Below, one piece after another: positions 10,224 through 37,647 of a stretch of 43,943 nt of DNA. The position numbers were made by a program, and so were the translations under genes. Within the stretch, counting starts at the first letter, position 1; the number at the start of each line of letters is the position of its first letter. The stretch covers positions 1 through 43,943 of the forward strand of contig JAFRKU010000088.1 of assembly GCA_017431585.1 (NCBI GenBank), written 5' to 3'. The stretch is from a bacterium. GTDB lineage: Bacteria > Patescibacteriota > Microgenomatia > UBA1400 > PJMF01. The notes below the pieces were generated by a model. The model made no database searches. It saw nothing but the letters and a program-made list of their open reading frames with translations, and was not told the DNA's origin.

Positions 10224-10269
10224 ATTTTGCTCTGATAAGAACCTACTTGATATGATATAATCAAGTTCT

Positions 10270-22254: not shown

Positions 22255-23165
22255 TTAGATGGCAATTTGTTTGCCGAGGCGATGCAAAAACCAATGTTTG
22301 GCGGCCAATTGTTCAATTTTGGAGCCGTGGCGCAGCAAGCGCCACGCTAAACGGACTACGCGCTGGCGGACGCGCCAGTTGCCGTAGGTGGCAAAAAAGT
22401 GGAGACGGTTGCGAGTTTGATAAAAAGTTTGTAAATCTGAGCCGGAGCCGTTGGTGGCGCCGCCGTTTTTGTGCCACACGATGCTGGAGGGGACAAAACC
22501 GAGTTTGAAACCATGAGTTTTGAGGCGAGCGGATAAATCGGTGTCTTCGTAATACAAAAAATATTGGTCGTCAAATACGCCGGTGGTGGCTAAAACTTCG
22601 CGGCGAATCAAAAAACAGCAACCGGTGGCAAAATCGAGCTCGGTTTCGTGCTCAAATTGGCCGCGGTCGATTTCGTCAACACCGCGATGACAAGTGAGCA
22701 AATTGTCCCAATCGATACTGCCGCCCGCAAACCAGATGACGTGGCCGCGCTGATCGGCTGGGTAGTCGGTGCGGTGGAATTCGCAGCCGGGGGCAAAGTA
22801 AATTTTGGGACTGGCTAAGCCCCAATCTGGATGGGCGTGCAAACTGGCGAGCAGATGCGCCAAAAAGTCTGGCTGCACGAGTGTATCGGCATTGAGGAGC
22901 AAAAAATAATCCGGATTGAATTCGCGACTGGCGACGGCAAAACCTAAATTATTGCCGCCGGTGAAGCCCAAATTGGTATCGGAGCGTACCAGTTGGGTGG
23001 CAGCGGGGGCGTTTGGGGGTAGTATATACGGGTTTTGGATGCATTATCGATGACGAAGGTGCGCACCTGATAATCGCCCGCCTTGAGGGCAGCTAAACTG
23101 GCCAGGACGGCGGTAGTATCCTCGTCGGTATTGTAGTGGACAATAATAATCGCAATTTTATCCAT
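22255..23165 (-). pseudogene. Family-2 glycosyltransferase interrupted by a 1-nt frameshift
   Basis: ORF 23165..22944 encodes MDKIAIIIVHYNTDEDT...FVIDNAS and then turns to nonsense. ORF 22971..22255 continues NLGFTGGNNLGFA...LLLNADT.... Adding one A to the A4 run (plus-strand T-run 23033..23036) gives a continuous ...VIDNASKNPYILPPNAPAATQLVRSDTNLGFTGGNNLG.... Confidence 0.7.
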
Positions 23166-23201: not shown

Positions 23202-24068
23202 CTACAAGATCTCTTCGGTGGTGTCATCTGGCGAGTGTTTCCATGAGAGCAGATAGCTATCGCGCCGCATTTTGTCGTCGCTGCCGACCAGTTTGCCTTC
23301 GCCGCGCAAAATGCGCTCAAAAGGTTCGCAATGGGGACAACCGCCGTGGGGGCATTTGAAAGCCTGGAGTTTGCGGGCGGTGGCGATACGCCGGCCGATG
23401 TCTAGCAGCTGGGCACGAGCGTCGGCGAGCGAGGGCAAAGGTTTGGGCGTGAGCTCGTCGTGGAGCTCCAGATACCAGTAAGCGGCGTCGCGGACGTGGT
23501 ATTTTTGGCAATAGGTAGCCAGAAGGAGGTAAATGGGCAGCTGGAGAGAGCTTTCGTTTTCGACGGTTTTGCTGGTTTTGAAATCAATAATGGTGACGGT
23601 TTGGTCTTCGGGGTGATAAGTGAGCCAGTCGAGTTTGCCGCACAAAATGATGTTTTCGTCCTCCGAGAGCCAAAATTCGGGTAAATCGGCTTTAATTTTG
23701 ACGGCCAAACCGGTGAGCGGTCCGGGATGATTCATGACCCGCTGAAGCATGGCCAGGCCGCGATCATGATAAGTTTTTTCCAAACTTTCGCTGGTGAATC
23801 CGCCTTTTTCGCCGGTAAATTGCGGCCAGTGGCGCTCAAATTGAGCGACCAAACTTTCTTGGAAACGCTCGCTGCTTTTTTTGGTGGACAAGTTTTCTAA
23901 AATGTCGTGGACGGCGATGCCCAGGGAAAGCGAAGGTGAGACAATTTGCAATTTGTGGCGGGTTTGAGGGTCTTTGTAGACGTTTTTAAGATAGTAAGCG
24001 CGCGGACACGCCAGGTAATCGCTGATACTACTGTGGGAAATCCAGGTGGCAGAATATTTATCACTCAT
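23202..24068 (-). CDS. PD-(D/E)xK nuclease, Cas4/RecB-like with Fe-S cysteines
   Basis: 288 aa. One N-terminal Cys (DYLACPRAYY), the core GKLDWL...VTIIDFKTSK, and C-terminal FKCPHGGCPHCEPF (C-x5-C-x2-C). ATG 24068 lies 7 nt after TGATATAAT (-10 at 24081..24076). Confidence 0.7.
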   Translation of the reverse strand: MSDKYSATWISHSSISDYLACPRAYYLKNVYKDPQTRHKLQIVSPSLSLGIAVHDILENLSTKKSSERFQESLVAQFERHWPQFTGEKGGFTSESLEKTYHDRGLAMLQRVMNHPGPLTGLAVKIKADLPEFWLSEDENIILCGKLDWLTYHPEDQTVTIIDFKTSKTVENESSLQLPIYLLLATYCQKYHVRDAAYWYLELHDELTPKPLPSLADARAQLLDIGRRIATARKLQAFKCPHGGCPHCEPFERILRGEGKLVGSDDKMRRDSYLLSWKHSPDDTTEEIL

Positions 24069-24090
24069 GGAAGCGATTATATCACAAAAT

Positions 24091-24146: not shown

Positions 24147-25043
24147 TTAGTTGCGGTGGCAGCGGAAGTAGAAAGTATCTGACCAGTCGCGCCAATCGCC
24201 ATCGTTCATCCGAATTTGATAACGGACGTAATAGGTGCGATTGTCGTCGAGATTGTAGCTGAAAACGACGCGATCGGTTTGTTGGTAGGTGTGATCGTAG
24301 ACGTCGTTGCGGCCGTTGTCGGTGCCAATCTGGACGTGGTACTCTTGAGCCGCTTTACCGTCTTTTTCAAACTTGGGCAAAACGATACGGACATCGTTCC
24401 AGCGGTTGCCACCGTCGAAACGGCCACAGCTTTCGATGTACGGAGTAGACGGTTTATACTCAGGATACGAATAATTGTAGGTATAACCATTGTTCCAGTT
24501 GTTCCAATCGCCGTTGATCGCCACCATCGGCACGCCGTTGACGTAGTAGATGGTATTGGGTTGGACATAATTGGTCGCCGGGACATAGGTCACCGTCTGG
24601 GTGACGGGTTGTTGGACCACGGTTTGGGTGGTAGCGCCGGCTGCCTGAACTTGGCCACCTTTGGTGGTCGTGGAGACCACCGGAGTCGCGGCTTCGGTTT
24701 CGACGTCTGCTGCGGCTTGCTCCGCCTGGGCGGCGCGAGTGCGTTCGCTGACGGCCAATTGCCGATCATTGGTGTCGCCAGTGGTGGTCGTGGTGTTTTT
24801 CAAGGCGGCATCGCCTTTGCCAGCGGTGGTGTCACCGTCCACGACGGTGCGGGAGGCCACTTGTTCGTCTGTGGTGGCTTTTTGTTGGCTGTAATTATAG
24901 ACAATTAAGCTGCCGGCCACCAAAATGGCGCAAATAACCGCGGCAGGCACCAGGCGAAAACGCCGAGTGGTTTCCACGGTGGGCACAAAATTAGGAGTAG
25001 TGTCGGCCGGAGCCGCATCTTGGTGAAATTGTACATCTGTCAT
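24147..25043 (-). CDS. Hypothetical membrane-anchored surface protein
   Basis: 298 aa with one TM helix (AAVICAILVAGSLIVY), a T/A/Q-rich spacer, and a C-terminal W/N/Y/D-rich ~130-aa domain containing two Cys. It is driven by promoter-module copy C with a ~70-nt leader. Confidence 0.5.
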   Translation of the reverse strand: MTDVQFHQDAAPADTTPNFVPTVETTRRFRLVPAAVICAILVAGSLIVYNYSQQKATTDEQVASRTVVDGDTTAGKGDAALKNTTTTTGDTNDRQLAVSERTRAAQAEQAAADVETEAATPVVSTTTKGGQVQAAGATTQTVVQQPVTQTVTYVPATNYVQPNTIYYVNGVPMVAINGDWNNWNNGYTYNYSYPEYKPSTPYIESCGRFDGGNRWNDVRIVLPKFEKDGKAAQEYHVQIGTDNGRNDVYDHTYQQTDRVVFSYNLDDNRTYYVRYQIRMNDGDWRDWSDTFYFRCHRN

Positions 25044-25122: not shown

Positions 25123-25168
25123 ATTATATCATATAAGGCCACTTTTGTCAAGAGGCAATTTAGCCTGG
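25123..25168 (-). promoter_or_regulatory. Sigma-70-type promoter with conserved upstream module (copy C)
   Basis: Minus strand reads CCAGGCTAAATTGCCTCTTGACAAAAGTGGCCTTATATGATATAAT. The -35 is at 25151..25146, the spacer is 17 nt, and the -10 is at 25128..25123. Confidence 0.6.
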
Positions 25169-25191
25169 AAAAATGTGGTATAATCGAAAAC

Positions 25192-26361
25192 ATGCTGAAA
25201 AGATGGTATTTTTGGCTGCTGATGAGCGTGGTGTTTGTCATTAGTTTGGGGGCGACGCTGCTAGCCTGGCCGCGCGACCAGCTGGTGGGCGAAACCGTGG
25301 TGATCACGGATGTGCCGGGGCAAAATGATCAACCAGAGGTAGAAGCGCCGCCTGATCCGCTGCGAGTGCGCTATATCGCTTTGTTGGGTCACGGTGGGGC
25401 GGGACATGACGGCGGTAGCCTGGCGGACACGGTGATGGTGGCTCAAATTGTGCCCCACGCGGCGACAATTAATTTGCTGTCGCTGCCACGGGACTTGTGG
25501 GTGGAGCTGCCAGTGACAAAAAGTGCTGATTCATCGCAAAATATGCACGCAAAGCTCAATACGACGCTCTCGGTGGGCTCTAGCGAGCGGATGTATACCT
25601 GGCGTGACGAGCGTTTCCAGGGGAAAAACGGCGGCGGCCAACTGGCCAAAGAGGTCATTGGCCAGATTATCGGCCAGGCGGTGGAATACTATGTGGCGGT
25701 GGATTTTAGCGGATTTGTCCGGCTGATTGAGATTATCGGTGGCTCAAGTGGGCTGAAAATCAATGTCCCCTACTCTTTTGTAGACGAATTTTACCCAATT
25801 GAGGGCGAGCAAAACAATAATTGCGATTTTTCGGAAGAACAAATTGCCCAGTTGACTGAGCAGTACACGGGTTACGAATTGGAACAACAGTTTACCTGTC
25901 GCTACGAGCGGCTGGAGTTTAACCAGGGGCTGCAACTGATCGAGCCAGAACAATTGCTCAAGTTTGTCCGGTCGAGACATTCGGGGGTGGGTGGGGGTGA
26001 TTTTGGGCGATCGGCTCGTCAGCAGGTGGTCATGGAAGCGGTCAAAGACAAGATTTTTTCCTTGTCTTTCGTGCCGAAGTGGCCGGAGTTTATCGCCACG
26101 GTGTTTAAAATCGTGCGCACGGATTTGGATTTGGACTTGATGAGCGATATTTTGCGCGATTGGGGCGATATACGCGAGTACACCATTAAAAGTTACGTGG
26201 TGGATAATAAGGAATTGTTGCGCGATGGCCGTTCGAGTGACGGTCAGTATGTGCTCATGCCGCGATCGGGCGAGGGTGATTACAGCCAAATCCATGCTTT
26301 AGTACAGACGATGATTGATGAAGCCACCCGGGAGGCGAGTTTAGCCGGGAGGCTCAAGTGA
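25192..26361 (+). CDS. LCP (LytR-CpsA-Psr) family glycopolymer ligase
   Basis: TM anchor followed by YIALLGHGGAGHDGGSLADTVMVAQI...INLLSLPRDLWVEL...YYVAVDFSGFVRLIEIIGG. Start moved to ATG 25192 (MLKRWYFWLL...), 7 nt after TGTGGTATAAT (-10 at 25179..25184). Confidence 0.8.
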   Translation: MLKRWYFWLLMSVVFVISLGATLLAWPRDQLVGETVVITDVPGQNDQPEVEAPPDPLRVRYIALLGHGGAGHDGGSLADTVMVAQIVPHAATINLLSLPRDLWVELPVTKSADSSQNMHAKLNTTLSVGSSERMYTWRDERFQGKNGGGQLAKEVIGQIIGQAVEYYVAVDFSGFVRLIEIIGGSSGLKINVPYSFVDEFYPIEGEQNNNCDFSEEQIAQLTEQYTGYELEQQFTCRYERLEFNQGLQLIEPEQLLKFVRSRHSGVGGGDFGRSARQQVVMEAVKDKIFSLSFVPKWPEFIATVFKIVRTDLDLDLMSDILRDWGDIREYTIKSYVVDNKELLRDGRSSDGQYVLMPRSGEGDYSQIHALVQTMIDEATREASLAGRLK

Positions 26362-26397
26362 TTGACGGATAGTGTATAATAGAGGTATAATAATAGT

Positions 26398-27213
26398 ATG
26401 AGCGAGAAACTACCAGTTAGCGTGATCATTATTGCCCGGAATGAAGCGGCGAATTTGCGGCGGTTGCTGCCGCAGTTGGTTTGGGCGAGCGAAGTGATAG
26501 TGGCAGCTAATGACTGCCAAGACGAGACGGTGGCGGTGGCGGAGGAAAACGGAGCGCGGGTGGAAACCATCGAGACAACTGATTTTGCGGCGCTGCGGAC
26601 ACGGGCGATGGATTGGGCGAGCCAGCCGTGGCTGTTTTATGTGGACGCCGACGAGCGGGTGACACCGGCTTTGCAGGCGGAAATCGCGGGGCTGGTGACG
26701 CAAGCTGGCAGTCGGGTGACGGCGGGGCGATTGCGCCGGCTTAATTTCCACTACGGAGCGCCGATGCGCTACGGTGGCTGGCAAAATGACTACGTGACGC
26801 GTATTTTTCGGCGCGATAGTTTGCAAGGTTGGCAGGGAGAAATCCACGAAAGCCCGGTTTTTGAGGGTGAGGTGAAAACGCTGCTGTCGCCTTTGTGGCA
26901 TTTGACTCATCGGTGCACGGCGGATAATTTGCGCAAGAGTGCTGATTGGACAATTAAGGAAGCGCGTTTGCTAGCGGCTAGTCCCATCGCACCGGTGACA
27001 GCGGTGACAATTGCGCGCAAAATGAGCATGGAATTTTTCCGCCGCTATATGCGCGATGGTGGCTGGCGCGACGGGATGGCGGGTTTTGTGGAAAGTCTGG
27101 TGCAAGCGATGAATCGGGGTTTGGTGTATATCCAAGTGTGGGAATTGCAACAGCAGCCCACACTGGCCGGTAAATATGAGCTACTGGAAAAAGAAGTGCA
27201 AAATCAGGTATAA
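26398..27213 (+). CDS. Family-2 glycosyltransferase
   Basis: 271 aa: VSVIIIARNEAANLRRLLPQL...WLFYVDADERV (DxD). ATG lies 6 nt after TATAAT 26386..26391. Confidence 0.8.
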   Translation: MSEKLPVSVIIIARNEAANLRRLLPQLVWASEVIVAANDCQDETVAVAEENGARVETIETTDFAALRTRAMDWASQPWLFYVDADERVTPALQAEIAGLVTQAGSRVTAGRLRRLNFHYGAPMRYGGWQNDYVTRIFRRDSLQGWQGEIHESPVFEGEVKTLLSPLWHLTHRCTADNLRKSADWTIKEARLLAASPIAPVTAVTIARKMSMEFFRRYMRDGGWRDGMAGFVESLVQAMNRGLVYIQVWELQQQPTLAGKYELLEKEVQNQV

Positions 27214-27221
27214 TTTGAGTT

Positions 27222-28328
27222 ATGCGAATTGTATTTTACTCACCATATTTACCTAAACATTTCGGTGGCGGCGAAAAATATTTGTTTGATACGGCGCTGG
27301 TGTACGCGCAAAAACATCGCGTGGATATTGCTTTGCCGGCGGATTGCGATCAAAAAGATGTGGACAAAATTAAAAAAGCTTATCAAAAACATTTGGGCGT
27401 GGATTTAAAGGCGCTGAATTTCGTCATTTCACCATTCGGAGCAGCGAAAAAAAAGTGGCAACGGTTGCTGTGGACCATGCGCTACGACGTGGTGTATTTT
27501 GTGACGGACGGGAGTGCGTTTTATTCGCTGGCGCGGCGCAACATTATGCATATTCAGGTGCCACTGCTTTTGGGGCGAAAAAGTGGTTGGGAGCGAGTGA
27601 AGTTTAAGCGGTTTAAAGTGATTAACGCCAACTCGAATTTTACCAAAAAAACCGTGGAAAAATATTGGGATATCAAGGTAAATATGGTGTGCCAACCTGG
27701 GGTGGAGGTTGGCGAGTTTCAGTTGCCGCCGGCGGCTACCAAAGAAAAAATTATTTTAAACGTGGGCCGGTTTTTTGACAGTTTGCATACCAAAAATCAG
27801 GATTCGCTGGTGGAATTTTGGCGCGAGTTGTGCCAAAAGCATCCGGAAGAGACGAAAGATTGGAAATTGGTACTGGTAGGCAAGGTGGAAAGCGAAGAGT
27901 ATGCGGCGCGGGTGGCGCAATTGGCGGCCGGGGCGAGCGTGGAAATATATCACGAAGTGTCGCACGAACAATTGGTGGAGTGGTACCGGCGAGCGGCGAT
28001 TTATTGGCATGCGACCGGCTGGCGCGATCAAGAATGGGAACATCCGGAACGAATGGAACATTTTGGGATTTCTACGGTGGAAGCGATGGCGGCCGGAGCG
28101 GTGCCGATTGTAGTGGCCAAAGGCGGACAAAAAGAAATTTTGGGCCAGAAGTTGCGAGAGTGTGCGTGGGAAAACAAAGCTGAATGTTTGCGCTTGACAC
28201 TGCAAGTGATGAAAAATGAAAAATTGCGTCAGCAATGGAGTGAGTTGGCCAGCAAACGCGCGGCTAATTACGACATGAAACAGTTTGCGAAACGGTGTTG
28301 GCAAATGTTGGAAAGTAAAAGAATATGA
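27222..28328 (+). CDS. GT-B glycosyltransferase (family 4 / group 1)
   Basis: 368 aa. The C-terminal EHFGISTVEAMAAGAVPIVVAKGGQKEIL matches the E-x7-E region. The upstream stop TAA is embedded in a TATAAT (27209..27214) that lies 7 nt from this ATG. Confidence 0.8.
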   Translation: MRIVFYSPYLPKHFGGGEKYLFDTALVYAQKHRVDIALPADCDQKDVDKIKKAYQKHLGVDLKALNFVISPFGAAKKKWQRLLWTMRYDVVYFVTDGSAFYSLARRNIMHIQVPLLLGRKSGWERVKFKRFKVINANSNFTKKTVEKYWDIKVNMVCQPGVEVGEFQLPPAATKEKIILNVGRFFDSLHTKNQDSLVEFWRELCQKHPEETKDWKLVLVGKVESEEYAARVAQLAAGASVEIYHEVSHEQLVEWYRRAAIYWHATGWRDQEWEHPERMEHFGISTVEAMAAGAVPIVVAKGGQKEILGQKLRECAWENKAECLRLTLQVMKNEKLRQQWSELASKRAANYDMKQFAKRCWQMLESKRI

Positions 28329-30862
28329 CAACACCCATTAGCGTGGTGATTCCGGATTACAAAGGTCTGAATTTATTGCAGGCCAATTTGCCGACGGTGG
28401 TGGCGGAGTTGGTGGATGGTGATGAAATAATTATCAGCGAAGACGCGGCTGACGAGCGCAGGACACGAGAAGATTTTGTCTCCCGGTATCAGTTGCAACC
28501 GGTGGTGCGCCAGCAAGTGCCGGGGCAGGTGTGGCAAAAGTGGGTGACAATGGCGGGCAAAAAAATTCACTTAGTGTTTTTGCAGCGGGCGCAAAATGGG
28601 CGGTTTGCCCGCAATGTCAATGATGCGGTCAAGTTGGTCAACAATCGTTTCTTTTTGCTGCTAAATAACGATGTTCAGCTGCAAAAAGGCGTGCGCGAGC
28701 AGTTGTTAGGCGAGTTGGCGGACGAAAAAGTGTTTGCGGTGACGGCTCGGGAAATCGATGTCCACGATGGTCATCGGGAGTCGGGGCGCAATAAATTGTG
28801 GTGGCGGGCGGGCCGTTTTTGGCACAGCCGCGATGAAGATGTGCACAGCAGTGGCGAAACGGCGTGGGCTTGCGGGGGCAGTAGTATGTACCGGACGGCC
28901 TACTGGCGCGAGCTGGGCGGCTTTGACACGCGCTATTATCCGGCTTACTGGGAAGACATCGACGTGTCGTGGCAGGCGCGAGCGCGCGGCTACAAAGTTT
29001 TGTATAAGCACACCGCGGTGGTTAATCATGTCCACGAAACTACCAACGCGACGGTGTTTGGCCGAGAGCGAATGATAGCGATGAGTTGGCAGGCGGGGAC
29101 AAAATTTGCTTGGAAAAATAGCAACTGGTGGCAGAAGTGTCAATTTATACTGATGTATCCGTATTGGTTGCTGAAGCAATATCCACAATTGTGGTGGTGG
29201 GTGGGGGTGGTAGCGGTGTGCGCGCTGACGCGGTTGGCGGTGATTAATACGCCGCACGGCTTGACGGTGGACGAGGCGGCCATCGGCTACAATGCTTATG
29301 GTATTTGGACGCAAAGGCGCGACGAATGGGCCAATAAATTGCCAGTGTCGTTTCGCTCTTACGGTGACTTTAAAGCGCCGCTGGCGATTTATGCGACCGC
29401 ACCGTGGGTGGGTATGCTGGGCATGCGGGTGTGGAGTGTGCGCTTGAGTTTTGTTTTGGCTGGTATCATGAGCGTGTGGGGACTGATGAAACTGGTGGAC
29501 GAATTGTTGTCTCGTGTCAAGCCCAATCATCAAACGTGGGCGGCGGCGGCCGGTTTTTTGATGACGGTGTCGCCGTGGCATTATCATTTTTCACATTTGG
29601 GCTTTGAAAACAATTGGGCGCTGGTCGGTGTGCTGTGGGGCATGTATGGTTGGCTGAAATTTGTGCACGCGCGCACCAACTGGCGCGGCAAACTTTTGAG
29701 TGAGACGTGGTGGAGCGCGCCGCTTTTGGGCAGCGGAGTGGCGCTGGTGGCGGCACTGTATAGTTATCATGCGGCCAAAGTGGTAGTGCCTTTGTTTGTG
29801 CTGGTGGCGCTGATCGGTTACTGGCCGGTGTGGCGAGCGCGGTGGCGAAGTTTGGCGGTGGCGCTGATGGTGGCGGTGGTGCTGGCGTGGCCTTTGCTGG
29901 CGGATAGCATTTGGGGCGAAGGTTTCACTCGGGCGGGTAGCTCGTTTATGTTTGATGCCCAAGTGCCATGGTCGCAAAAGGCGACGATGCTGGTGAGCAG
30001 TTATACGGCGCACTGGCAGCCGGCCTATTTATGGGCGGGGCAATTGTACGAAGCGCAAACGACGACGGGTCAATGGTTGGCGAATGTCCGCCACGGCGAC
30101 GGGGCGCACGGGATTCTAACGCTCGCGGAGACAAGCTTGATACTATTATTAATAGCCAGCGTGACACGTTTTGGTGAAGTGCGCCGTGATGCTGGCGAAG
30201 CAATAGCGTGGGGCGCGGCGTGGTGGCTGCTGGGCGTAGTACCGGCGGCGCTGACGACGCAAGTGCCACATAGTAACCAAAGTTTTTTGGCGGTGCCGGG
30301 AGTGATAATTTTGGCGGTGACCGGTTGGGCGACATGGCGAGCGTGGTGGCGGAGGCAAAATTTAAAATTTTATCCCGGAGTGATGGTGTTGGTGGCGGTA
30401 TTGATTAGTTTGGGCTTTATGCAACGAGTGAGCGCTTACAAAATGGTGTTTGGCAGCGCCAAACAGATAGCTGCTGTGAGTTCACAGCCAGATGTGGCGA
30501 CTGATGTGGCACGGCAGACGGCCAGCGATTATTTTTTCGCTACGGATTTGTTGGATGCTGTGCGCGAGAGTGAAAAAATTGAGCATCGGGGGACGTCAAT
30601 CGTGCTGTCGACTCATTTTGAGCAAGAATATATTTATGTGTTGATTGCGCGGCACATCAAACCACTGGAGCGATATTTGGCCAATGAATTTTTGCAAGTC
30701 AGTCAGTTGGAAGAAAAATATTTTTTGGATAAAAAGCGTATTTTGATTTACACGCCGGATAAATTAATCAATCGCGATTGGAAGCAACATTGTGCGCGTA
30801 CTACGGTGTGGATCGATGGCGCGGGCCGGCCGAAAATAACGCTGTGCGTGACGAAAGAGTAA
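28325..30862 (+). CDS. Fusion protein: family-2 glycosyltransferase + GT-C (ArnT/PMT family-39-like) membrane glycosyltransferase
   Basis: 845 aa. The N-terminal ~270 aa read ISVVIPDYKG...LLLNNDVQL...YPAYWEDIDVSWQARARGYKV (GT2). The rest is polytopic, with the first-loop motif LTVDEAAIGYNAYGIW...YGDFKAPLAIY. The ATGA overlap with the previous gene indicates coupling. Confidence 0.8.
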   Translation: MTTPISVVIPDYKGLNLLQANLPTVVAELVDGDEIIISEDAADERRTREDFVSRYQLQPVVRQQVPGQVWQKWVTMAGKKIHLVFLQRAQNGRFARNVNDAVKLVNNRFFLLLNNDVQLQKGVREQLLGELADEKVFAVTAREIDVHDGHRESGRNKLWWRAGRFWHSRDEDVHSSGETAWACGGSSMYRTAYWRELGGFDTRYYPAYWEDIDVSWQARARGYKVLYKHTAVVNHVHETTNATVFGRERMIAMSWQAGTKFAWKNSNWWQKCQFILMYPYWLLKQYPQLWWWVGVVAVCALTRLAVINTPHGLTVDEAAIGYNAYGIWTQRRDEWANKLPVSFRSYGDFKAPLAIYATAPWVGMLGMRVWSVRLSFVLAGIMSVWGLMKLVDELLSRVKPNHQTWAAAAGFLMTVSPWHYHFSHLGFENNWALVGVLWGMYGWLKFVHARTNWRGKLLSETWWSAPLLGSGVALVAALYSYHAAKVVVPLFVLVALIGYWPVWRARWRSLAVALMVAVVLAWPLLADSIWGEGFTRAGSSFMFDAQVPWSQKATMLVSSYTAHWQPAYLWAGQLYEAQTTTGQWLANVRHGDGAHGILTLAETSLILLLIASVTRFGEVRRDAGEAIAWGAAWWLLGVVPAALTTQVPHSNQSFLAVPGVIILAVTGWATWRAWWRRQNLKFYPGVMVLVAVLISLGFMQRVSAYKMVFGSAKQIAAVSSQPDVATDVARQTASDYFFATDLLDAVRESEKIEHRGTSIVLSTHFEQEYIYVLIARHIKPLERYLANEFLQVSQLEEKYFLDKKRILIYTPDKLINRDWKQHCARTTVWIDGAGRPKITLCVTKE
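28699..28712 (+). repeat. GCAGTTGTTAGGCG 14-mer, exact copy 1
   Basis: gcgcgaGCAGTTGTTAGGCGagttgg. Reads Q-L-L-G in frame within the GT2 domain. Confidence 0.9.
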
Positions 30863-30863
30863 G

Positions 30864-32561
30864 ATGTGGCGAGCGTGGTGGCAACAACTACAAACACAAA
30901 AAATCCATTGGGGACATTGGAGTGTGATTGTGTTGATCGCCTTACTAGTGCGGGTGTGGCAATTTGGGCGGGTGCCGGTGAGTTTGTATTGGGACGAGCA
31001 AGCGCTGCTTTATGACGCGTGGAGTATTGCCCAAACGGGCCGAGATTATCACGGTCAATTTTTACCGCTGGTCGCTTTCAATAGTTTCGGCGATTTCAAA
31101 CCGAGCGGCTATTTTTATGCGGTGGCACTGGTGCTGCAAATCGTGGGTGCCAGGGAATGGGCGGTGCGGGTGCCGAGTTTGCTATCGGGGGTGATCAGCG
31201 TGATTTTAATTGGGATTATTGCTGATAAAATGTGGGGAGGTAAACGGCGTGGCGGCTGGAGGGTGGGCGAAATAGCGGCTTTGGTGGCGGCGATCAATCC
31301 GGCTTTTGTTCATTTGTCGCACGTGGGGTTTGAAACGCATGCGGCGACGTGTTGGCTTCTGGCTGGCGTGGCTCTCCTCTACCCGCGCGACGATGGGCGC
31401 TGGTCGTGGCAGTTGTTAGGCGGGGAATTGTGTTTGCTGGCGAGTTTTTACACTTATCATGCCACGCGGGTGATTGCGCCACTTTTGGGCATTTATTTGC
31501 TGGCGTGGAATATGTGGCGTGCGCACACGCGTCAGATCGCATGGCGAGAGAATATGGCGAAGCTGGCGGCGATGGTGGCGGTGGCAGCCGTGGGGGTGAT
31601 GCCTTTGGTGTGGCCGACGGCGAGCCAAAGTGTGACACATCGGCTGGCGGAAACTTCTATTTTTGCGCAAAGGGAAATCATTGAGGCGAGTAATCAGTGC
31701 CGAGCACTCGCGGGCGACACATGGGCGGCGAAGTGGTGGTGTCATCGTTACTGGTTTTGGGCGCGGGAAATGGCGTCGCGCTGGAGTGCGCATTTGAATT
31801 TGGATTATTTGTTTTGGCGCGGTGACGAGAACTGGCGGCACAGTATTCATTGGGCGGGCGTGTTTTTCCCGTGGGAGGCAATCGGTTTATTTTTGGGACT
31901 GGTGCATTTCGGAGCCAGGCGTAGACAAGGGCGAGCGGCCATCGGCTTTTTAATTTTTTGGTTGATGGTGGCTTTGCTGCCGGCGAGTGTGACGCTGGCG
32001 ACGCCGCATTTGTTGCGTTCGCTTTCATCGGTGCCGGTGTTAATTATAGCGGTGGCCGCTGGTTGGTGGTGGCTGGCAGAATTAATGGCGAAGTGGCGGT
32101 GGCGACAACTCGTGACGGTGGGGATCGTGGCGGTGTATGCAGCAGGCACGCTGGCGTGGCAATATGCGTACACGCATTGGTATGCGGCGGCAAGTGGTAG
32201 TGACTGGCAAGATGGCTACGAAGCGGCGCTGGCGCAATTGCGGGCGTGGCAAGAAAAATATCCGGATGATCCAGTGTATATAACCCGCGAGCTAGGTCGG
32301 CCGAGCGTTTATTATTTTTGGGAGAACAAAATTGACCCGCAGCGGGTACAAGCCACGGCGGAGACGGCGGCTTTTGATCAAGGTGAGTATTTGAATTTTG
32401 CACCCGAGCACGTCAGCTTTGGGATAGATTGGCACGAGGGGCCGCAATTGGTGATGATCACCCCGGCGGAAACCGGGCGCGTGACGGCGTGGGAAGCCAG
32501 CAGCGAAGTGCACAATAGTGCGGGCGAGGTGGTTTTGGTAGTGGGACGGAGTCAGCGATGA
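30864..32561 (+). CDS. GT-C (ArnT/PMT family-39-like) membrane glycosyltransferase
   Basis: 565 aa, polytopic, with VSLYWDEQALLYDAWSIAQTGRDYHGQFLPLVAFNSFGDFKPSGYFY in the first loop. Paralog of the neighbouring genes. Confidence 0.8.
   Translation: MWRAWWQQLQTQKIHWGHWSVIVLIALLVRVWQFGRVPVSLYWDEQALLYDAWSIAQTGRDYHGQFLPLVAFNSFGDFKPSGYFYAVALVLQIVGAREWAVRVPSLLSGVISVILIGIIADKMWGGKRRGGWRVGEIAALVAAINPAFVHLSHVGFETHAATCWLLAGVALLYPRDDGRWSWQLLGGELCLLASFYTYHATRVIAPLLGIYLLAWNMWRAHTRQIAWRENMAKLAAMVAVAAVGVMPLVWPTASQSVTHRLAETSIFAQREIIEASNQCRALAGDTWAAKWWCHRYWFWAREMASRWSAHLNLDYLFWRGDENWRHSIHWAGVFFPWEAIGLFLGLVHFGARRRQGRAAIGFLIFWLMVALLPASVTLATPHLLRSLSSVPVLIIAVAAGWWWLAELMAKWRWRQLVTVGIVAVYAAGTLAWQYAYTHWYAAASGSDWQDGYEAALAQLRAWQEKYPDDPVYITRELGRPSVYYFWENKIDPQRVQATAETAAFDQGEYLNFAPEHVSFGIDWHEGPQLVMITPAETGRVTAWEASSEVHNSAGEVVLVVGRSQR
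31409..31422 (+). repeat. GCAGTTGTTAGGCG 14-mer, exact copy 2
   Basis: gtcgtgGCAGTTGTTAGGCGgggaat. Reads Q-L-L-G in frame within a membrane segment. Confidence 0.9.
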
Positions 32562-34189
32562 AAAAATGGTGGTCGCGACTGAAACCATGGCTGCTGGAAT
32601 ACGGTTTGCTGGTGGTGATCGTGGTGGCGGGCAGTTGCTGGCGCCTCAGTCAGCTGGGACAATTGCCTCAGGGACTGAATCGTGACGAGGCGGCTCTCGC
32701 TTACAACGCGCTGCTGGTGGCACAAACCGGACAAGACGAATGGCAACAGGTTTATCCGGTGTTTTTTAAAAGTTTTGGTGATCAAAAATTACCTTTGTAC
32801 CCATATATTTTAGTGATTTTGTTCAAATTTTTACCACAGACAGATGTGATAGTGCGCTTGCCGAGTGCCATCTGCGGGATACTATTAATAATTGTCACTT
32901 ACGCTGTGGCCAAAATGGTGACCGGGCGCCACGGCTGGCTGGGTGCGAATTTAGCGGCGGCGATGGTGGCTGCCAGTCCGGTGTTTATTTGGTACTCGCG
33001 GGGTGCGTGGGAGGCCAATGTGGGTTTGCTGCTGCTGGCGGTGGCTGCAGGGCTTGCCTGCTGGCAATATCAAACGGGGAAATCTTGGTCGGTGAGGCGA
33101 TTAATCTTGATCCTATTATTATTGATGGGCAGTTGTTTGGCGTATAATGCGCCGCTGCTGATTTTGGTGGTGGCGATGTGGCTGATACCAATAGTTTGTT
33201 GGCGACGAGGTATCGGCTGGTGGGCGCCGCTGCTAGCGGGCGTGGCGGCGGTGGTGGTGATTGGTTTCGGGTTGCTGTTGCCTGTCGTCAATCAAAAACA
33301 AGGCATTAGTATTTTTAATGATCCAACGCTCATGTATGAATACACTTTGTATCGGCAGCAATTTAGCGGGGTAGCTCAAAAATTGGTGGGTAATTACTGG
33401 GTGTATGAAGCGCGATTAATACTGGAGGCCGTGATCAAAAGTTTTTCGCCGCAATTTTGGCAGCACGGCGGGTCACATCCGTGGCATCAACTTTCGGGTG
33501 AGGGTCATGTGACCATCATAGTGATGATAATTTTTGATGTGACTTTGATTTACCAGGTGGTGACGCTGGTGGCGCAAATGATCAAGCGACAAAAATGGTG
33601 GCAGCAAAAAAACTTTTGGTGGCTAGTGATATTATTGGTAACTTTGGTGCCGAGCGTGATTACCACAGATAGTCCGCATGCCACTCGGAGTTTACAATTT
33701 TTTTGGGTGCTGGCGGTGGGTGCGGGTTGGTCGCTGGCTGATTTATGGTCACAATTGGTGGCGGAGACAAAACGGCGTCAAATTGCTCTCACATCTGGCT
33801 CCGAAATGATAATTTTGGTTTTAAGTGTAGGGATCATTTTGCTGACGGGACAAAATTATTGGACTAATTATCAAACGAAATTGCGGGAGCATAATATTTA
33901 TCACAACAATTGGGCGCAGTTGTTAGGCGAGATAGAAAGTGAACGACTGACATTGGTGCGGGGTCCGGGCAGTGAGTATGAATACATTAAAATAGCGTGG
34001 GTCAGTCACATGAGTCCGGAAATTTTTTGGTCAACTTTGAGTCGGGCGGGCAGCGATGGAGTTGGTTTGCAAGGCGGGCGATATTTGGCGAATTTTCATT
34101 TCGTGGCGCCGACGGAAGAAGTGAGTGGTGAGTGGCAAAAAATTATTTTAAATGAGCAGACAGGTGAATGGGAGGTACAAGATGATTAG
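32558..34189 (+). CDS. GT-C (ArnT/PMT family-39-like) membrane glycosyltransferase
   Basis: 543 aa, polytopic, with LPQGLNRDEAALAYNALLVAQTGQDEWQQVYPVFFKSFGDQKLPLYPY. ATGA overlap with the previous gene. Confidence 0.8.
   Translation: MKKWWSRLKPWLLEYGLLVVIVVAGSCWRLSQLGQLPQGLNRDEAALAYNALLVAQTGQDEWQQVYPVFFKSFGDQKLPLYPYILVILFKFLPQTDVIVRLPSAICGILLIIVTYAVAKMVTGRHGWLGANLAAAMVAASPVFIWYSRGAWEANVGLLLLAVAAGLACWQYQTGKSWSVRRLILILLLLMGSCLAYNAPLLILVVAMWLIPIVCWRRGIGWWAPLLAGVAAVVVIGFGLLLPVVNQKQGISIFNDPTLMYEYTLYRQQFSGVAQKLVGNYWVYEARLILEAVIKSFSPQFWQHGGSHPWHQLSGEGHVTIIVMIIFDVTLIYQVVTLVAQMIKRQKWWQQKNFWWLVILLVTLVPSVITTDSPHATRSLQFFWVLAVGAGWSLADLWSQLVAETKRRQIALTSGSEMIILVLSVGIILLTGQNYWTNYQTKLREHNIYHNNWAQLLGEIESERLTLVRGPGSEYEYIKIAWVSHMSPEIFWSTLSRAGSDGVGLQGGRYLANFHFVAPTEEVSGEWQKIILNEQTGEWEVQDD
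33129..33142 (+). repeat. GCAGTTGTTtGGCG: 13/14 near-copy in a different reading frame
   Basis: Read as GGC AGT TGT TTG GCG (G-S-C-L-A). In this frame the consensus TAG would be a stop, and the copy carries TTG instead. Confidence 0.75.
33916..33929 (+). repeat. GCAGTTGTTAGGCG 14-mer, exact copy 3
   Basis: ttgggcGCAGTTGTTAGGCGagatag. Reads Q-L-L-G in frame near the C-terminal soluble part. Confidence 0.9.
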
Positions 34190-35987
34190 TGTTGTTTACG
34201 CGGTACACAATGAAGAAAAAATTTTGGCGCGCTCGCTGCAATCGGTGCAGCAGTGGACGGATGAAATCGTGGTGGTGGACGGTGAATCGACTGACACGAC
34301 GGCGGAAATCGCTAAAAGTTTTGGGGCGCGAGTGATAGAAACCACTAATAAGGCGAATTTCCATATCAACAAACAGATGGCAATTGATAAAGCGACCGGT
34401 GACGTGATTTTGCAGTTGGATGCGGACGAAGTGGTGGACGAGCAGTTTCGCGATTTTGTGCAAATGGTGGATCGGGAGCGACCGAGCGAGTGCGTGGCGT
34501 GGTATATTAAGCGGAAAAATTTATTTTTCCGGCGGTGGCTGACGAAAGGTGGGCAGTATCCGGACATGGTGATTCGGTTGTTTTATCGCGAGAAAGCTTA
34601 TTTGCCGCAAAAAGATGTACACGAGCAAATGACAGTGGATGGAGCTGTGGGCGTGGCTACGGGTCACTTGTTGCATTTTGCCAATCCGGATTTGGCCAGT
34701 TACTGGCGCAAATTTGACACCTACACCAGTTTTAAGGCGGCACAGCTGGCGGAAGAAAAAGTGCCGATTAATAAGTTTAACTTTTTTAAGTATTGGTTTT
34801 GGAAGCCGGCGGCCACTTTTTGGAGCATTTGGTTGCGCCATCGCGGCTACGTGGACGGCGGGGCCGGGTTTTTGTTTGCGCTTTTTTCCGGCTGGCATCA
34901 TCTGGTGGCGTACGCCAAATATGTGGAAAATGAGCGGCTGATGCCAGAGGGCAAAATTCAGGTTTATGTCCCGGGCAACAGTGTGGAAAAAAAGCAAGAC
35001 CGAGGAGTGGGGCGCTACACGCGTTGGCTGCTGGAGACGCTGGAAGAGCGTGGTCAGGTGACGCTCACCGACAAGCGAGAGACGGCGGACATTGTTCATT
35101 ATCCGTGGTGGGATTTGTATAAAGCGACGCTGCAAAAAGTGAACAGTGACCAAAAATTGGTGGTGACGGTGCATGATATTATTCCATATTTGTTTCCCGA
35201 TGATTATCCGGTGGGCATCATGGGCAAAATTAATTTTTGGCGTCAGCGACACCGGTTGCGACAAGCGACGATGGTGATTGCAGACAGCAATGCCACCAAA
35301 AAAGATGTCAGCGAAAAATTTCATCTGGATTCGGAAAAAATAAAAGTGGTGTATTTGGCAGCCAATCCGAATTTGCAACCGGCCAGCAACCAAGACATCG
35401 TCCAAGTGAAAAAAAGTTATGCTTTAAGCGAGCGCTACATTTTGTACGTGGGCGACATAAATTTCAACAAAAATTTGCCGCAACTGATTAAGGCTTTGAA
35501 ATTTGTGGATGATCAAGAGATGGATTTGGTGATGGTAGGCAAAAATTTTGTGCCGCAAGAAATTCCAGAGTGGCAAGTGATTAGCGAACAGTTGGATTTA
35601 AGTGAGGTGAAAAATCGGGTTAAGTTTTTGACGAGTGTGACGACTGATCGCGAACTAAGCGCTTTGTACAGCGGGGCGAGTGTCTACGTGCAACCTTCGT
35701 ATTACGAAGGTTTCGGTTTGCCGGTGCTGGAAGCGATGAGTTGCGGTTGTCCGGTGGTGTGCGCCAAAAATTCGTCACTGAGCGAAGTGGGCGGTCAGGC
35801 GGCGATTTATGCGGCCAGTACCCGAGCGGAAGATTTGGCAGCAGCGATTAACAAAGTCCAGCAACTGACGGCGAAGCAGCGCCAAGAAGTGATTGAACAG
35901 GGCCAAAGTTGGGCGGCGACTTTTACCTGGGATAAAACGGCGGCAAGAGTGGAAAAAGTGTATGCACAAGTGGTGGCAGCAAATTAA
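34182..35987 (+). CDS. Fusion protein: family-2 + family-4 glycosyltransferase
   Basis: N-terminus MISVVYAVHNEEKILARSLQSVQQWTDEIVVVDGESTDTT...LQLDADE (GT2). C-terminus YYEGFGLPVLEAMSCGCPVVCAKNSSLSEVGG (GT4). Start set to ATG 34182, 6 nt after GGAGG, overlapping the upstream gene by 8 nt. Confidence 0.8.
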   Translation: MISVVYAVHNEEKILARSLQSVQQWTDEIVVVDGESTDTTAEIAKSFGARVIETTNKANFHINKQMAIDKATGDVILQLDADEVVDEQFRDFVQMVDRERPSECVAWYIKRKNLFFRRWLTKGGQYPDMVIRLFYREKAYLPQKDVHEQMTVDGAVGVATGHLLHFANPDLASYWRKFDTYTSFKAAQLAEEKVPINKFNFFKYWFWKPAATFWSIWLRHRGYVDGGAGFLFALFSGWHHLVAYAKYVENERLMPEGKIQVYVPGNSVEKKQDRGVGRYTRWLLETLEERGQVTLTDKRETADIVHYPWWDLYKATLQKVNSDQKLVVTVHDIIPYLFPDDYPVGIMGKINFWRQRHRLRQATMVIADSNATKKDVSEKFHLDSEKIKVVYLAANPNLQPASNQDIVQVKKSYALSERYILYVGDINFNKNLPQLIKALKFVDDQEMDLVMVGKNFVPQEIPEWQVISEQLDLSEVKNRVKFLTSVTTDRELSALYSGASVYVQPSYYEGFGLPVLEAMSCGCPVVCAKNSSLSEVGGQAAIYAASTRAEDLAAAINKVQQLTAKQRQEVIEQGQSWAATFTWDKTAARVEKVYAQVVAAN

Positions 35988-37647
35988 AAAATACTGGTGG
36001 CCAGGTATAATTGCGGTACTGATTGTGTTCTGTTTCGGACCATATATGCGCTTGGGGTTGCCGGTGACGCATGACGGCGAAAATCATGTGGCTCGTTTTG
36101 CTCAGTATTATTTAGCGCTGCGCCAAGGTCAAGTGCCGCCGCGACTGGGGCCGACGCTGGAAAACGGCTACGGTTATCCGGTGTTTAATTTCAATTATCC
36201 GCTGAGCAATATTTTGAGCGTGCCGCTGATAGCAGTGCGTCTACATCCGGAGCTGGTGTTTAAAATTTTGGCGGTGGGATACGTGTGTTTGGGCGCCTGG
36301 AGCTGGTGGCAGTGGCAAAAGGCGCGCGGGATGAAGCGGGCGGCTTTGGGTTGGTCGACGCTGGCTTACGTGTGGGCGCCGTACTTATATAATAGTATCT
36401 GGTATCGGGGTAACATAGGTGAAATTGCGGCCTGGGCGTTGGTGCCGCTGGTGGCGTGGCAAATTGAGCGGTGCCGCGAGGACAAAGCGTGGGCGTGGAG
36501 TACGCTGACAATCTCGCTGGCGGCCTTTTGCCTGTGTCACAATATTTTCGTGATGCTCATGATCCCGTGTTTGTTTGGGTACGCGCTGGTGCGAATGCGA
36601 GGGATGACAGAAAAAAAACGCTTCGGGCAGTTGTTAGGCGCGTTTGGACTAACGGTGGCAGTGACATTGTGGTTTTGGTTACCAGCTTTGGTGGAAAAAA
36701 AGTTGACGGTGCTGGACGGGGCGGGACTCAATCAAGAATATTTGCTCCACTTCCCTACCCTGTCGCAACTGCTCAGCTTTAATTACAGCGGCGGTTTGTC
36801 GTATCCGGGGAGGATCGATGGTTTGAGTTTGGGGGCGGGACTGGTGTTGGTGCTGACACTGGGAGTGGCGAGCGTGAAGACGCTATTGTGCAGATGCAAC
36901 CGACAGTCGTTAACGACTAAAATAGTCGTTAACGACTATTTGTTAATTGGCGCGTGGGTATTAATTGTTTTACAATTGACGATGAGCGCGCCGGTGTGGC
37001 GGTGGATACCGTTTTGGCATTATGTGCAATTTCCGTGGCGGTTGAGTTTGGCGTGGCAATTAATCCTATGCTGGCTGCTGGCCGAAATGGTCAATTTTTG
37101 GTCGCTACGCCTGGCTCCGAAATGGCAAAAATGGTTAGATATGGCGTTGGTCATAATTTTTGGGGCGCAATTGGTGCTGATGATCTACGGTTGGCCGCGA
37201 GATTTTTTTCATCGCGACAAAATCGAATATCAACTCTACTCGCAAGCGACTTCCACCGCGCACGAAAACACGCCGCGGAGTTTTACTTTTGAAATTTGGC
37301 GGGAGGTGGCGGAAGCGCCGCAAGTGGCCAGTGGCGAGGGTGAGTTATTAGGCGCGAGCGTGCTGAATACGACGCACAAAAAATTTGAAGTGGTGTGCGA
37401 AAGCGAGCAGTGTGTGATCATCGAGCCGACGGCGAATTTTGCGGGGTTTGCCACGCGGGTGGACGGGGCGCGCGCGACGTATGTGGACAATGGTGACATC
37501 GGCGGACGGATTGCTTACATTCTCGGGCGCGGGACGCACACGGTGGAAACACGGTTTACGGAGAAGACGTGGCCGCGGTTGGTGGGCGATGGGATCAGTG
37601 TGCTCGCCGTTGTGGCGATCATTTACATGGCGACCCGGCGGCGCTAG
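35962..37647 (+). CDS. Polytopic membrane protein, GT-C-like (PTPS-related membrane domain family)
   Basis: About 561 aa from ATG 35962 (MHKWWQQIKKYWWPG...). The first loop reads PVTHDGENHVARFAQYYLALRQGQVPPRLGPTLENGYGYPVFNFNYPLSNIL, the pattern of the so-called 6-pyruvoyl-tetrahydropterin-synthase-related membrane proteins. Overlaps the upstream gene by 26 nt. Confidence 0.55.
   Translation: MHKWWQQIKKYWWPGIIAVLIVFCFGPYMRLGLPVTHDGENHVARFAQYYLALRQGQVPPRLGPTLENGYGYPVFNFNYPLSNILSVPLIAVRLHPELVFKILAVGYVCLGAWSWWQWQKARGMKRAALGWSTLAYVWAPYLYNSIWYRGNIGEIAAWALVPLVAWQIERCREDKAWAWSTLTISLAAFCLCHNIFVMLMIPCLFGYALVRMRGMTEKKRFGQLLGAFGLTVAVTLWFWLPALVEKKLTVLDGAGLNQEYLLHFPTLSQLLSFNYSGGLSYPGRIDGLSLGAGLVLVLTLGVASVKTLLCRCNRQSLTTKIVVNDYLLIGAWVLIVLQLTMSAPVWRWIPFWHYVQFPWRLSLAWQLILCWLLAEMVNFWSLRLAPKWQKWLDMALVIIFGAQLVLMIYGWPRDFFHRDKIEYQLYSQATSTAHENTPRSFTFEIWREVAEAPQVASGEGELLGASVLNTTHKKFEVVCESEQCVIIEPTANFAGFATRVDGARATYVDNGDIGGRIAYILGRGTHTVETRFTEKTWPRLVGDGISVLAVVAIIYMATRRR
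36627..36640 (+). repeat. GCAGTTGTTAGGCG 14-mer, exact copy 4
   Basis: cttcggGCAGTTGTTAGGCGcgtttg. Reads Q-L-L-G in frame. Confidence 0.9.
37342..37354 (+). repeat. gAGTTaTTAGGCG: near-copy of the 14-mer
   Basis: gggtGAGTTATTAGGCGcgagc. Differs from the 13-nt core at two positions and reads E-L-L-G. Confidence 0.5.

Follow-up and report, generated by a model that had tools for sequence, protein, structure and literature searches.

A glycosyltransferase gene cluster conserved among Patescibacteria that may assemble a wall or surface glycopolymer

Introduction

We have analysed a stretch of 43,943 nucleotides of bacterial DNA (GenBank assembly GCA_017431585.1, contig JAFRKU010000088.1), referred to here in its whole length as the window, which carries a block of eight co-directional open reading frames (ORFs) on the + strand at positions 25192-37647. 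The series begins with a gene for a LytR-CpsA-Psr (LCP) ligase and continues with genes for glycosyltransferases (GTs) of families GT2 and GT4, a GT2::GT-C fusion of 845 aa, two GT-C proteins, a GT2::GT4 fusion and an unrelated protein of GT-C fold. Genes of this kind occur together in at least 80 Patescibacteria genomes, and we put at about even the chance that the block is the local version of a Patescibacteria cluster that uses a polyprenyl-phosphate carrier to assemble a glycopolymer of the cell wall or cell surface. An earlier interpretation of the window (the sequence-only reading) had described an LCP ligase followed by a seven-gene glycosylation operon; the ORFs, both fusions and the overlaps that it listed are all present where it had placed them. 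The genes and domains of the block are as follows.

25192..26361, + strand: LCP glycopolymer ligase, 389 aa (PF03816, TIGR00350)
26398..27213, + strand: soluble GT2, 271 aa (PF00535, 37.7 bits; no transmembrane helix)
27222..28328, + strand: GT4 (GT-B fold, retaining), 368 aa (PF00534, 83.8 bits)
28325..29179, + strand: GT2 (GT-A fold) domain of the 845-aa fusion, aa 1-246, with two amphipathic helices, aa 247-285 (PF13641, PF00535, AlphaFold2, Foldseek)
29189..30862, + strand: ArnT-like GT-C domain of the same fusion, aa 289-710, with a C-terminal alpha/beta domain, aa 712-845 (Foldseek; homologs with PF13231)
30864..32561, + strand: predicted GT-C paralog, PMT_2, 565 aa (PF13231; loop motif DEQALLYDA at 30993-31019)
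32558..34189, + strand: predicted GT-C paralog, 543 aa (paralogy to the 565-aa protein; loop motif DEAALAYNA at 32684-32710)
34182..35987, + strand: GT2::GT4 fusion, 611 aa (601 aa from the ATG at 34182) (PF00535, PF00534)
35962..37647, + strand: fourth membrane protein of GT-C fold, 561 aa (561/584), PTPS_related/AftD-like (AlphaFold2 and Foldseek; PF10131/PF11847 matches in its family)

Results and discussion

The gene order is conserved among Patescibacteria

A scan of GTDB species genomes gave 249 confirmed matches, of which the best 80 loci were searched by tblastn for the ten domains of the window. Versions of the cluster with 30-60% identity exist in at least 80 genomes of Pacebacteria, Woesebacteria and related Patescibacteria, and the relatives that carry names are Pacebacteria/Paceibacterota, Woesebacteria, Microgenomates and metagenome-assembled genomes labelled 'Patescibacteria group'. 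The best full-length relatives of the 845-aa fusion and of the last protein of the block are 44-47% identical to them; closer sequences are confined to a single ENA sample, which contains fragments with 99% identity. The sequence-only reading had suggested a comparison of synteny across related genomes, and this comparison shows that the order GT2-GT4-(GT2+GT-C)-GT-C (1-4 copies)-GT2-GT4-PTPS-like is kept in contigs from Logan, JGI, ENA and NCBI as well as in the 80 GTDB genomes.

One Logan contig (L001 in our numbering of loci) reproduces the order of the window exactly: GT2, GT4, GT2::GT-C, GT-C, GT-C, GT2::GT4 and PTPS-like. The more distant loci L002-L004 (~33% identity) keep this order and are longer, with extra GT-C genes inserted and with GT2 and GT4 as separate genes. 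Their 5′ additions encode an LCP protein, another PTPS-like protein, two further GT2s and a Wzx flippase of the MOP type (NF007773, 108.9 bits), and the cluster of distant relatives also has genes for sugar-nucleotide epimerases or dehydratases. All of the best 80 loci have the core GT2-GT4-(GT2+GT-C); after it come GT-C genes in varying number, at most 7 in a locus, and then GT2, GT4 and the PTPS-like gene. What had been taken for a self-contained seven-gene line is therefore part of a larger conserved cluster, which in other genomes extends to the Wzx flippase, the two additional GT2s and the second GT-C protein of PTPS-like type. The 313-aa GT2 that heads the L002 cluster was considered as a GtrB-type synthase and rejected: it has no transmembrane (TM) helix and is a third paralog of the small soluble GT2.

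Whether the domain pairs are fused or split in other genomes was decided by a direct ORF-extension test. The GT2 and GT-C domains that form the 845-aa protein could be assessed in 73 loci; they are fused in 30, encoded by adjacent separate genes in 34 and separated by 1.2-3.6 kb in the remaining 9. For the GT2 and GT4 domains of the 611-aa protein, adjacent separate genes prevail (36 of 44 loci), with fusion in 5 loci and a separation of more than 400 nt in 3. Both fusions are therefore joins of neighbouring operon genes that are specific to certain lineages, and no special architectural invention. The two fusion glycosyltransferases reported earlier are thus real, but they do not define the design of the cluster, as the same domains are separate neighbours in most relatives. 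By the Rosetta-stone argument, the occurrence of the fused parts as neighbouring genes elsewhere indicates that the parts work together.

Two peculiarities of the database records were seen in the course of this comparison. In L085 (ENA ERZ28018901, k141_909788), the 99%-identical fusion gene is called as 626 aa plus a separate downstream gene, and this short call may reflect a truncation or frameshift in that assembly. Many of the cluster-bearing GTDB records among L005-L084 have the title 'uncultured Pseudomonadales bacterium', and two others that of 'Pseudomonadales bacterium isolate HK-STAS-PATE-15/-17'. L066 is given as 'Vitreimonas sp.' and L084 (CP011212.1) as 'candidate division TM6'. 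Such titles would seem to be taxonomic mislabels and not to name the true hosts.

Four membrane proteins have the GT-C fold

The N-terminal ~245 aa of the 845-aa fusion match PF13641 (31.2 bits) and PF00535 (24.9 bits), with MftF also among the best matches. Its C-terminal 560 aa match nothing in the Pfam or NCBIfam profiles, and PF13231 is found in many full-length homologs of the fusion. The sequence-only reading had proposed structure prediction for the fusions. Carried out on the 845-aa protein with an alignment of 46 full-length homologs, AlphaFold2 gave a confident model (pLDDT 91.7, pTM 0.90). In Foldseek comparisons the N-terminal domain of this model resembles GT-A enzymes, with ppGalNAc-T2 as the top match (E 1.7e-9) and a fold of the GT27/WbbL-like type, and the membrane domain resembles ArnT (5f15/5ezm, E 1.5e-8, TMt 0.48-0.52). 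Residues D33, D40, N114, D116, E210, D211, D213, H235 and H237 of the GT2 domain are invariant in the 46 sequences, as are D316, E317, Y322 and N323 of the first loop of the membrane domain, which lie in the motif DEAAIGYNA (29270-29296). Both the model and a hydropathy scan place a single TM helix (aa 289-307) after the cytoplasmic GT2 domain, and with one such helix the D-E loop would lie outside the membrane.

The two proteins encoded downstream are related to this membrane domain. The 565-aa protein scores 34.7 bits with the PMT_2 profile PF13231 (cut-off 26.1), and BLASTP aligns it with the C-terminus of the fusion over 539 columns (25% identity, E 8e-27). The 543-aa protein is a multi-span membrane protein in the hydropathy scan, and its matches to PMT_2 (20.5 bits), GtrII (20.9 bits) and Agl23 all fall under the cut-off. 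It is 28% identical to the 565-aa protein (BLASTP, E 7e-18) and aligns with the fusion in the first loop only (E 7e-11). Through this paralogy both are predicted to be GT-C enzymes. The first-loop motif noted by the sequence-only reading is shared by the three paralogs, although it is one residue longer than described and reads (V/W/R)-D-E-x-A-x-x-Y-(N/D)-A.

The last protein of the block has no match of its own in Pfam or NCBIfam. Among 43 aligned members of its family, however, PF10131 (PTPS_related) is matched by 12 and PF11847 (the N-terminal GT-C domain of AftD) by 6. Its AlphaFold2 model (pLDDT 90.8, pTM 0.91) has a beta-sandwich at the C-terminal end followed by a final TM helix, and Foldseek matches it almost exclusively with GT-C proteins (AglB, STT3, PglB, AftD, ArnT, PMT and AftA; TM ~0.4), PDB matches 1-22 all being GT-C proteins with TMq ~0.4. 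The first loop carries the motif T-H-D-G-E-N-H (36067-36087), in which 43 homologs show no variation at T36, H37, D38, G39 and H42 and hardly any at E40. A fourth paralog was considered and ruled out: BLASTP finds the last protein unrelated to the others, and a profile-profile comparison with the fusion family gives a probability of 5%. The family is large, with 443 matches in a word-indexed search and 14,246 representative clusters at E<=1e-3.

Each of the four proteins has several hydrophobic segments in hydropathy scans, with which the AlphaFold2 helix maps of the 845-aa and 561-aa proteins agree. Searches with the four single sequences against PDB sequences gave chance-level matches only, and family profiles gave nothing for the last protein and matches to the GT2 domain alone for the fusion family. 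All four are GT-C-fold proteins, the fourth belonging to a separate family. Profiles, paralogy and folds here agree with the four membrane enzymes of GT-C type that had been proposed, with PF13231 matched above its cut-off only by the 565-aa protein, and the family matches and fold also bear out the label of a PTPS-related, GT-C-like protein for the last one. The acidic first loop would be external in each case, judging from the one TM helix that follows the cytoplasmic GT2 domain or from a short basic N-terminus.

Several observations on the family and gene of the last protein are recorded here. Six relatives (P0009, P0014, P0017, P0020, P0021 and P0089) have 917-951 aa, ~380 aa more than the protein of the window, and one relative of ~940 aa carries the JGI name 'Gpi18-like mannosyltransferase'. 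Relatives of ~940 aa hint at further GT-C::GT-C fusions in this family. Within the gene itself, at 36905-36937 (+), the 14-nt palindrome AGTCGTTAACGACT occurs twice with AAAAT between the copies. A hairpin of 15 bp can form from the two copies, and the protein segment encoded here belongs to a helix that follows a cytoplasmic loop.

Cytoplasmic glycosyltransferases and the LCP ligase

The remaining glycosyltransferases of the block are assigned by profile searches with matches above threshold, as the sequence-only reading had expected of the GT2 and GT4 proteins. The 611-aa protein combines a GT2 domain (PF00535, 76.2 bits, aa 13-139) with a GT4 domain (PF00534, 103.1 bits, aa 426-586). Its N-terminal domain and the 271-aa protein form one GT2 subgroup: the closest solved relative of the former is GmaR (E 3.6e-14), and those of the latter are GmaR (E 1.7e-4) and SunS. 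Orthologs of the 271-aa GT2 (41-59% identical) stand in the equivalent position in nearly all loci, and the GT4 gene is conserved directly 5′ of the fusion gene across loci.

The LCP assignment is also borne out. PF03816 is matched at aa 78-288 with 94.7 bits (cut-off 24.6) and TIGR00350 with 76.9 bits (cut-off 62.3), and a hydropathy scan shows one TM helix (aa 5-28) as an N-terminal anchor before the catalytic domain. An LCP gene was found in 22 of 84 related loci. In L007, L011 and L013 it immediately precedes the cluster in the same orientation, and in most of the distant loci it has the opposite orientation, lies several kb away or is undetected.

Gene junctions and transcription signals

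Direct inspection of the sequence shows ATGA junctions at 28325-28328 and 32558-32561, an 8-nt overlap at 34182-34189 with GGGAGG 7 nt 5′ of the ATG at 34182, and a 26-nt overlap at 35962-35987; the genes for the 845-aa and 565-aa proteins are separated by the 1-nt gap between 30862 and 30864. The LCP and GT2 genes are spaced by 36 nt and the GT2 and GT4 genes by 8 nt, without overlap, and both of these gaps contain TATAAT 6-8 nt 5′ of the ATG. Promoter-like elements are assigned to the first three genes.

25179..25194, + strand: TATAAT box, putative leaderless-type promoter of the LCP gene (box 7 nt 5′ of the ATG)
26386..26400, + strand: promoter-like site TTGACG-18-TATAAT of the GT2 gene (-10 box 6 nt 5′ of the ATG; 11/12 consensus positions)
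27209..27224, + strand: TATAAT box of the GT4 gene (box 7 nt 5′ of the ATG)

The arrangement TATAAT-N4-10-ATG occurs 18 times in the window, mostly at gene starts, compared with 1.77 expected occurrences, and none of 100 shuffled sequences reaches this number. Further such sites are located at 5203-5217, 10256-10272, 22159-22174 (-) and 24066-24081 (-). The excess suggests that leaderless mRNAs may be widespread in this organism, and the LCP, GT2 and GT4 genes probably each begin a leaderless transcript of their own. The five genes from 28325 onwards have no TATAAT-ATG box and are joined through overlaps. No convincing internal terminator was found in the block (the terminator scan gave 28 candidates in comparison with 20.7 +/- 4.5 in shuffled sequence). 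Because the first three genes carry their own -10 boxes, the 'one coupled unit' of the sequence-only reading in the strict sense extends from GT4 through the last gene. With this restriction on coupling, the overlapping junctions and the gene order kept in ~80 genomes support the view that the genes of the block form one functional unit.

A proposed pathway for glycopolymer assembly

Assembly of a wall or surface glycopolymer would proceed in four steps. At the cytoplasmic face, the 271-aa GT2, the 368-aa GT4, the GT2 domain of the 845-aa protein and both domains of the 611-aa protein would build a lipid-linked oligosaccharide from nucleotide sugars, and a WbbL-like GT2 encoded at 22255-23165 would join them if it is functional. 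The intermediate would then be flipped across the membrane; a Wzx-type MOP flippase is encoded in the clusters of many relatives and none in the window. Outside, the four GT-C enzymes, each of which has an invariant acidic residue in its predicted first external loop (D-E or H-D), could extend, branch, polymerise or transfer the glycan with the use of polyprenyl-phosphate-linked donors. Finally, the LCP protein would transfer the finished polymer to peptidoglycan. Folds and families, catalytic-loop motifs, topology logic, gene order and overlaps are results of the analysis, whereas we infer the carrier lipid and the sugars, in what order the steps proceed, what the acceptor is and which role falls to each GT-C enzyme.

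That the product is a glycopolymer of the wall or surface is favoured by the context of LCP and Wzx genes and by the number of GT-C genes, which is 4-7 in each cluster. The sequence-only reading had named either a glycan-building or a protein O-glycosylation line; the former is what these features favour, and for the protein route, whose proposed acceptors are conjectural, neither PF02366 nor a WWDYG motif is found.

Several points weigh against this proposal. The window encodes no priming phosphoglycosyltransferase, no Wzx or GtrA flippase and no TM-bearing polyprenyl-phosphate sugar synthase of the GtrB/DPMS type, and none of its GT2s has TM helices of its own in the hydropathy scan, so that the proteins for essential steps must come from outside the window. 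The PMT_2 family is broad and includes protein-modifying enzymes, and the GT2 subgroup of the 271-aa protein and the 611-aa N-terminal domain is closest to the protein and peptide glycosyltransferases GmaR and SunS. LCP enzymes can glycosylate proteins too, as with LcpA and GspA in Actinomyces. Moreover, the searchable literature yielded no paper on the cluster, and none that deals with patescibacterial GT-C enzymes or with fusions of the GT-A::GT-C type.

A more specific form of the proposal, which we consider possible although doubtful, is that the product is a chemically undescribed glycopolymer specific to Patescibacteria, built largely outside the membrane by four to seven GT-C enzymes that include the T-H-D-G-E-N-H family. 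If so, a polymer kept in genomes of ~1 Mb could be a core component of the envelope for an attached, host-dependent lifestyle. In a sharper variant, the GT2::GT-C protein would be a covalent machine in which a lipid-linked donor is made inside and used outside.

Alternative functions for the cluster

General protein O-glycosylation is the alternative that survives best, although we consider it unlikely. Surface proteins rich in Ser/Thr or pilins would then receive the sugars that the GT-C enzymes take from polyprenyl-phosphate donors; the glycan would be made or pre-assembled by the cytoplasmic enzymes, and the LCP protein may attach it to protein. Such a function would be in keeping with the PMT_2 matches of both paralogs (that of the 543-aa protein under the cut-off), with the affinity of both small GT2 modules for SunS and for GmaR, which is a flagellin O-GlcNAc transferase, with type IV pilus genes nearby, and with a Thr-rich membrane-anchored protein encoded divergently from LCP, whose C-terminal domain is kept in L001, L007, L011 and L013. 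This neighbour, however, is conserved in the closest clade only and not over the range of the cluster. The Foldseek list of the last protein is led by the oligosaccharyltransferases (OSTs) AglB, STT3 and PglB and includes protein O-mannosyltransferases (PMTs), yet it scores no higher against OSTs (TM ~0.4) than against AftD or ArnT. In general, the proteins of the block share with GT39 PMTs and with STT3, AglB and PglB the GT-C fold, an acidic first-loop motif and distant structural matches (TM-scores ~0.3-0.45), and they differ in that none of the four membrane proteins has PF02366 (GT39 PMT) or a MIR domain at E<=0.01, or a WWD/WWDYG-like OST motif. In known systems of this kind one PMT or oligosaccharyltransferase is enough, whereas the clusters described here have up to 7 GT-C genes.

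The product might instead be a membrane-anchored lipoglycan of the lipomannan (LM) or lipoarabinomannan (LAM) type, a reading to which we assign a still lower probability. GT4 and GT2 enzymes would glycosylate a membrane lipid inside, the GT-C enzymes would extend it outside and LCP would be a mere neighbour. The GT4 module of the 611-aa protein indeed scores best against GT4s of actinobacterial type (TIGR02149, 119.5 bits; MshA; the glycolipid synthases IagA/BgsA and Dgs), tandem GT-C genes resemble the logic of PimE, MptA and MptB in mycobacterial lipomannan, and the displacement or lack of a detectable LCP gene in most distant loci would be expected of a bystander. In the clade of the window itself, by contrast, LCP is immediately upstream and co-directional. 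The cluster of relatives also holds a Wzx flippase, a type that moves polyprenyl-linked oligosaccharides, and no donor synthase of the Ppm1 or GtrB type was found.

Equally improbable in our view is that the 845-aa protein is a fused module whose GT2 domain loads polyprenyl phosphate inside and whose GT-C domain uses this donor outside, as a covalent GtrB/GtrC or CsbB/YfhO pair, with the other GT-C enzymes decorating an existing polymer. Neighbouring GT-A and GT-C genes are a hallmark of such pairs, as with ykcC-ykcB, csbB-yfhO and ykoT-ykoS of Bacillus subtilis (PMC5836110). The two domains are adjacent or fused in 64 of the 73 loci, and the two amphipathic helices after the GT2 domain suggest a seat on the membrane surface. 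Like the three-component systems GtrA/GtrB/GtrC, CsbB/GtcA/YfhO and ArnC/ArnE-F/ArnT, the cluster thus places a GT2 next to or in fusion with a GT-C enzyme that has an acidic first loop and an ArnT-like fold. The GT2 domain itself is not of the GtrB or ArnC type: its PF00535 score is low and its best matches are PF13641 and MftF, its fold is GT27/WbbL-like, and in split versions it has no TM helices of its own. In a family-profile search GtrB, DPMS and ArnC match it only over the first ~60 residues with weak E-values, and none of them is among the top 50 structural matches of the fusion. The window also has no small GtrA-type flippase, and the many extra cytoplasmic glycosyltransferases point to an oligosaccharide in contrast to the single-sugar decoration of three-component systems.

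Comparison with known glycopolymer pathways

The closest analogues that have been worked out are the wall polysaccharide systems of lactococci and streptococci, the GT-A/GT-C pairs of B. subtilis and Listeria (PMC5836110) and, in mycobacteria, arabinogalactan and LM/LAM synthesis. In the synthesis of the lactococcal rhamnose-rich cell wall polysaccharide and polysaccharide pellicle (Rha-CWPS/PSP), cytoplasmic glycosyltransferases make a C55-P-linked oligosaccharide, Wzx flips it, one GT-C enzyme polymerises it and another transfers it, and the rhamnan is anchored by LcpA (PMC10821137). The Patescibacteria cluster resembles this system and that of the group A carbohydrate (GacI/J/K/L) in having GT2 and GT4 enzymes inside that would act on a polyprenyl-phosphate carrier, a Wzx-type flippase (in relatives), LCP anchoring as proposed, and more than one GT-C enzyme outside, the counterparts being the polymerase WpsH, the transferase WpsJ and the decorator GacL. 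In contrast to these systems, no primer GT2 of the GacI/WpsA (GtrB-like) type and no ABC exporter were found, there are no rml genes in the window, two GT pairs are fused in the lineage of the window, and up to 7 GT-C genes are present per locus in place of one to three. The GT-C protein of the PTPS_related type has no studied counterpart in either system.

A second parallel is offered by mycobacteria. In arabinogalactan synthesis the GT2s WbbL and GlfT act inside, the GT-C enzymes Aft and Emb act outside and Lcp1 ligates the product. With this pathway and those for LM and LAM the cluster has in common WbbL-like GT2s and GT4s inside, a series of GT-C enzymes outside and an LCP ligase. The family of the last protein provides a link to AftD through its partial matches to PF11847, and its fold matches both AftD and AftA. 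Sequence identity to the mycobacterial enzymes is undetectable, however, and profile searches against PDB sequences gave no GT-C match. The host also differs, being a patescibacterium of reduced genome, and neither UbiA nor DprE1/2 (for decaprenyl-phosphoarabinose) nor Ppm1 was seen.

The enzyme families and the general scheme, with GT2 and GT4 enzymes inside, GT-C enzymes outside and ligation by LCP, are already known from Firmicutes and Actinobacteria, and our result extends known biology without introducing a new principle. New are the conserved assembly found across Patescibacteria, the unusual number of GT-C genes per cluster and the lineage-specific fusions. The assignment of a GT-C fold and a candidate catalytic loop to the PTPS_related-like family is also new; it concerns ~14,000 representative clusters, and the searchable literature revealed no studied member of this family. 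Patescibacteria (the candidate phyla radiation) account for a large share of bacterial diversity, and to our knowledge almost nothing is known of their envelope chemistry. As the cluster occupies over 12 kb in genomes whose size is often only ~1 Mb and keeps its order across lineages that are only 30-45% identical, it is likely to serve a core envelope function. The cluster therefore offers a concrete target for glycan analysis or for genetics in the few cultivable members.

A displaced GT2 gene and the remainder of the window

One member of the cluster is found outside the block in the window.

22255..23165, - strand: frameshifted WbbL/rhamnosyltransferase-like GT2, displaced cluster member (two frames; orthologs in related loci)

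Its N-terminal part (22944-23165) and C-terminal part (22255-22971) are in different frames, with poly-C runs at the junction; the C-rich stretch there contains CCCCCAAACGCCCCCGC. With an intact copy in L007 the gene shares 70% identity. In most loci an ortholog (50-61% identical among those listed) lies directly upstream of the ortholog of the 271-aa GT2, and the one in L002 matches the rhamnosyltransferase profile TIGR01556. The cluster has been rearranged in the lineage of the window, and the frameshifted GT2 may be inactive or mis-sequenced, the frameshift being either that of a real pseudogene or a homopolymer sequencing error.

A class A penicillin-binding protein is encoded 3 kb upstream of the block, which indicates that peptidoglycan, the usual LCP acceptor, is made. 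The other genes of the window include pheS/pheT and those for LDH, trigger factor and PilB/PilT/PilC, and on gene content the remainder of the window fits a reduced genome of the Patescibacteria type with peptidoglycan and type IV pili. Rfam and tRNA scans of the window gave one tRNA-Val only, far from the block, and positions 1-2340 (~2.3 kb) have short ORFs only and no Rfam or tRNA match at gathering thresholds.

The Thr-rich neighbour of the LCP gene is a membrane-anchored protein of 298 aa (24147-25043, -) with a Thr-rich linker and a C-terminal domain rich in W, Y and N. It has no Pfam or NCBIfam match, and near the cluster its C-terminal domain is kept in the nearest clade only. The gene is preceded by a perfect promoter, TTGACA-17-TATAAT, at 25123-25151 (-), which is divergent from LCP.

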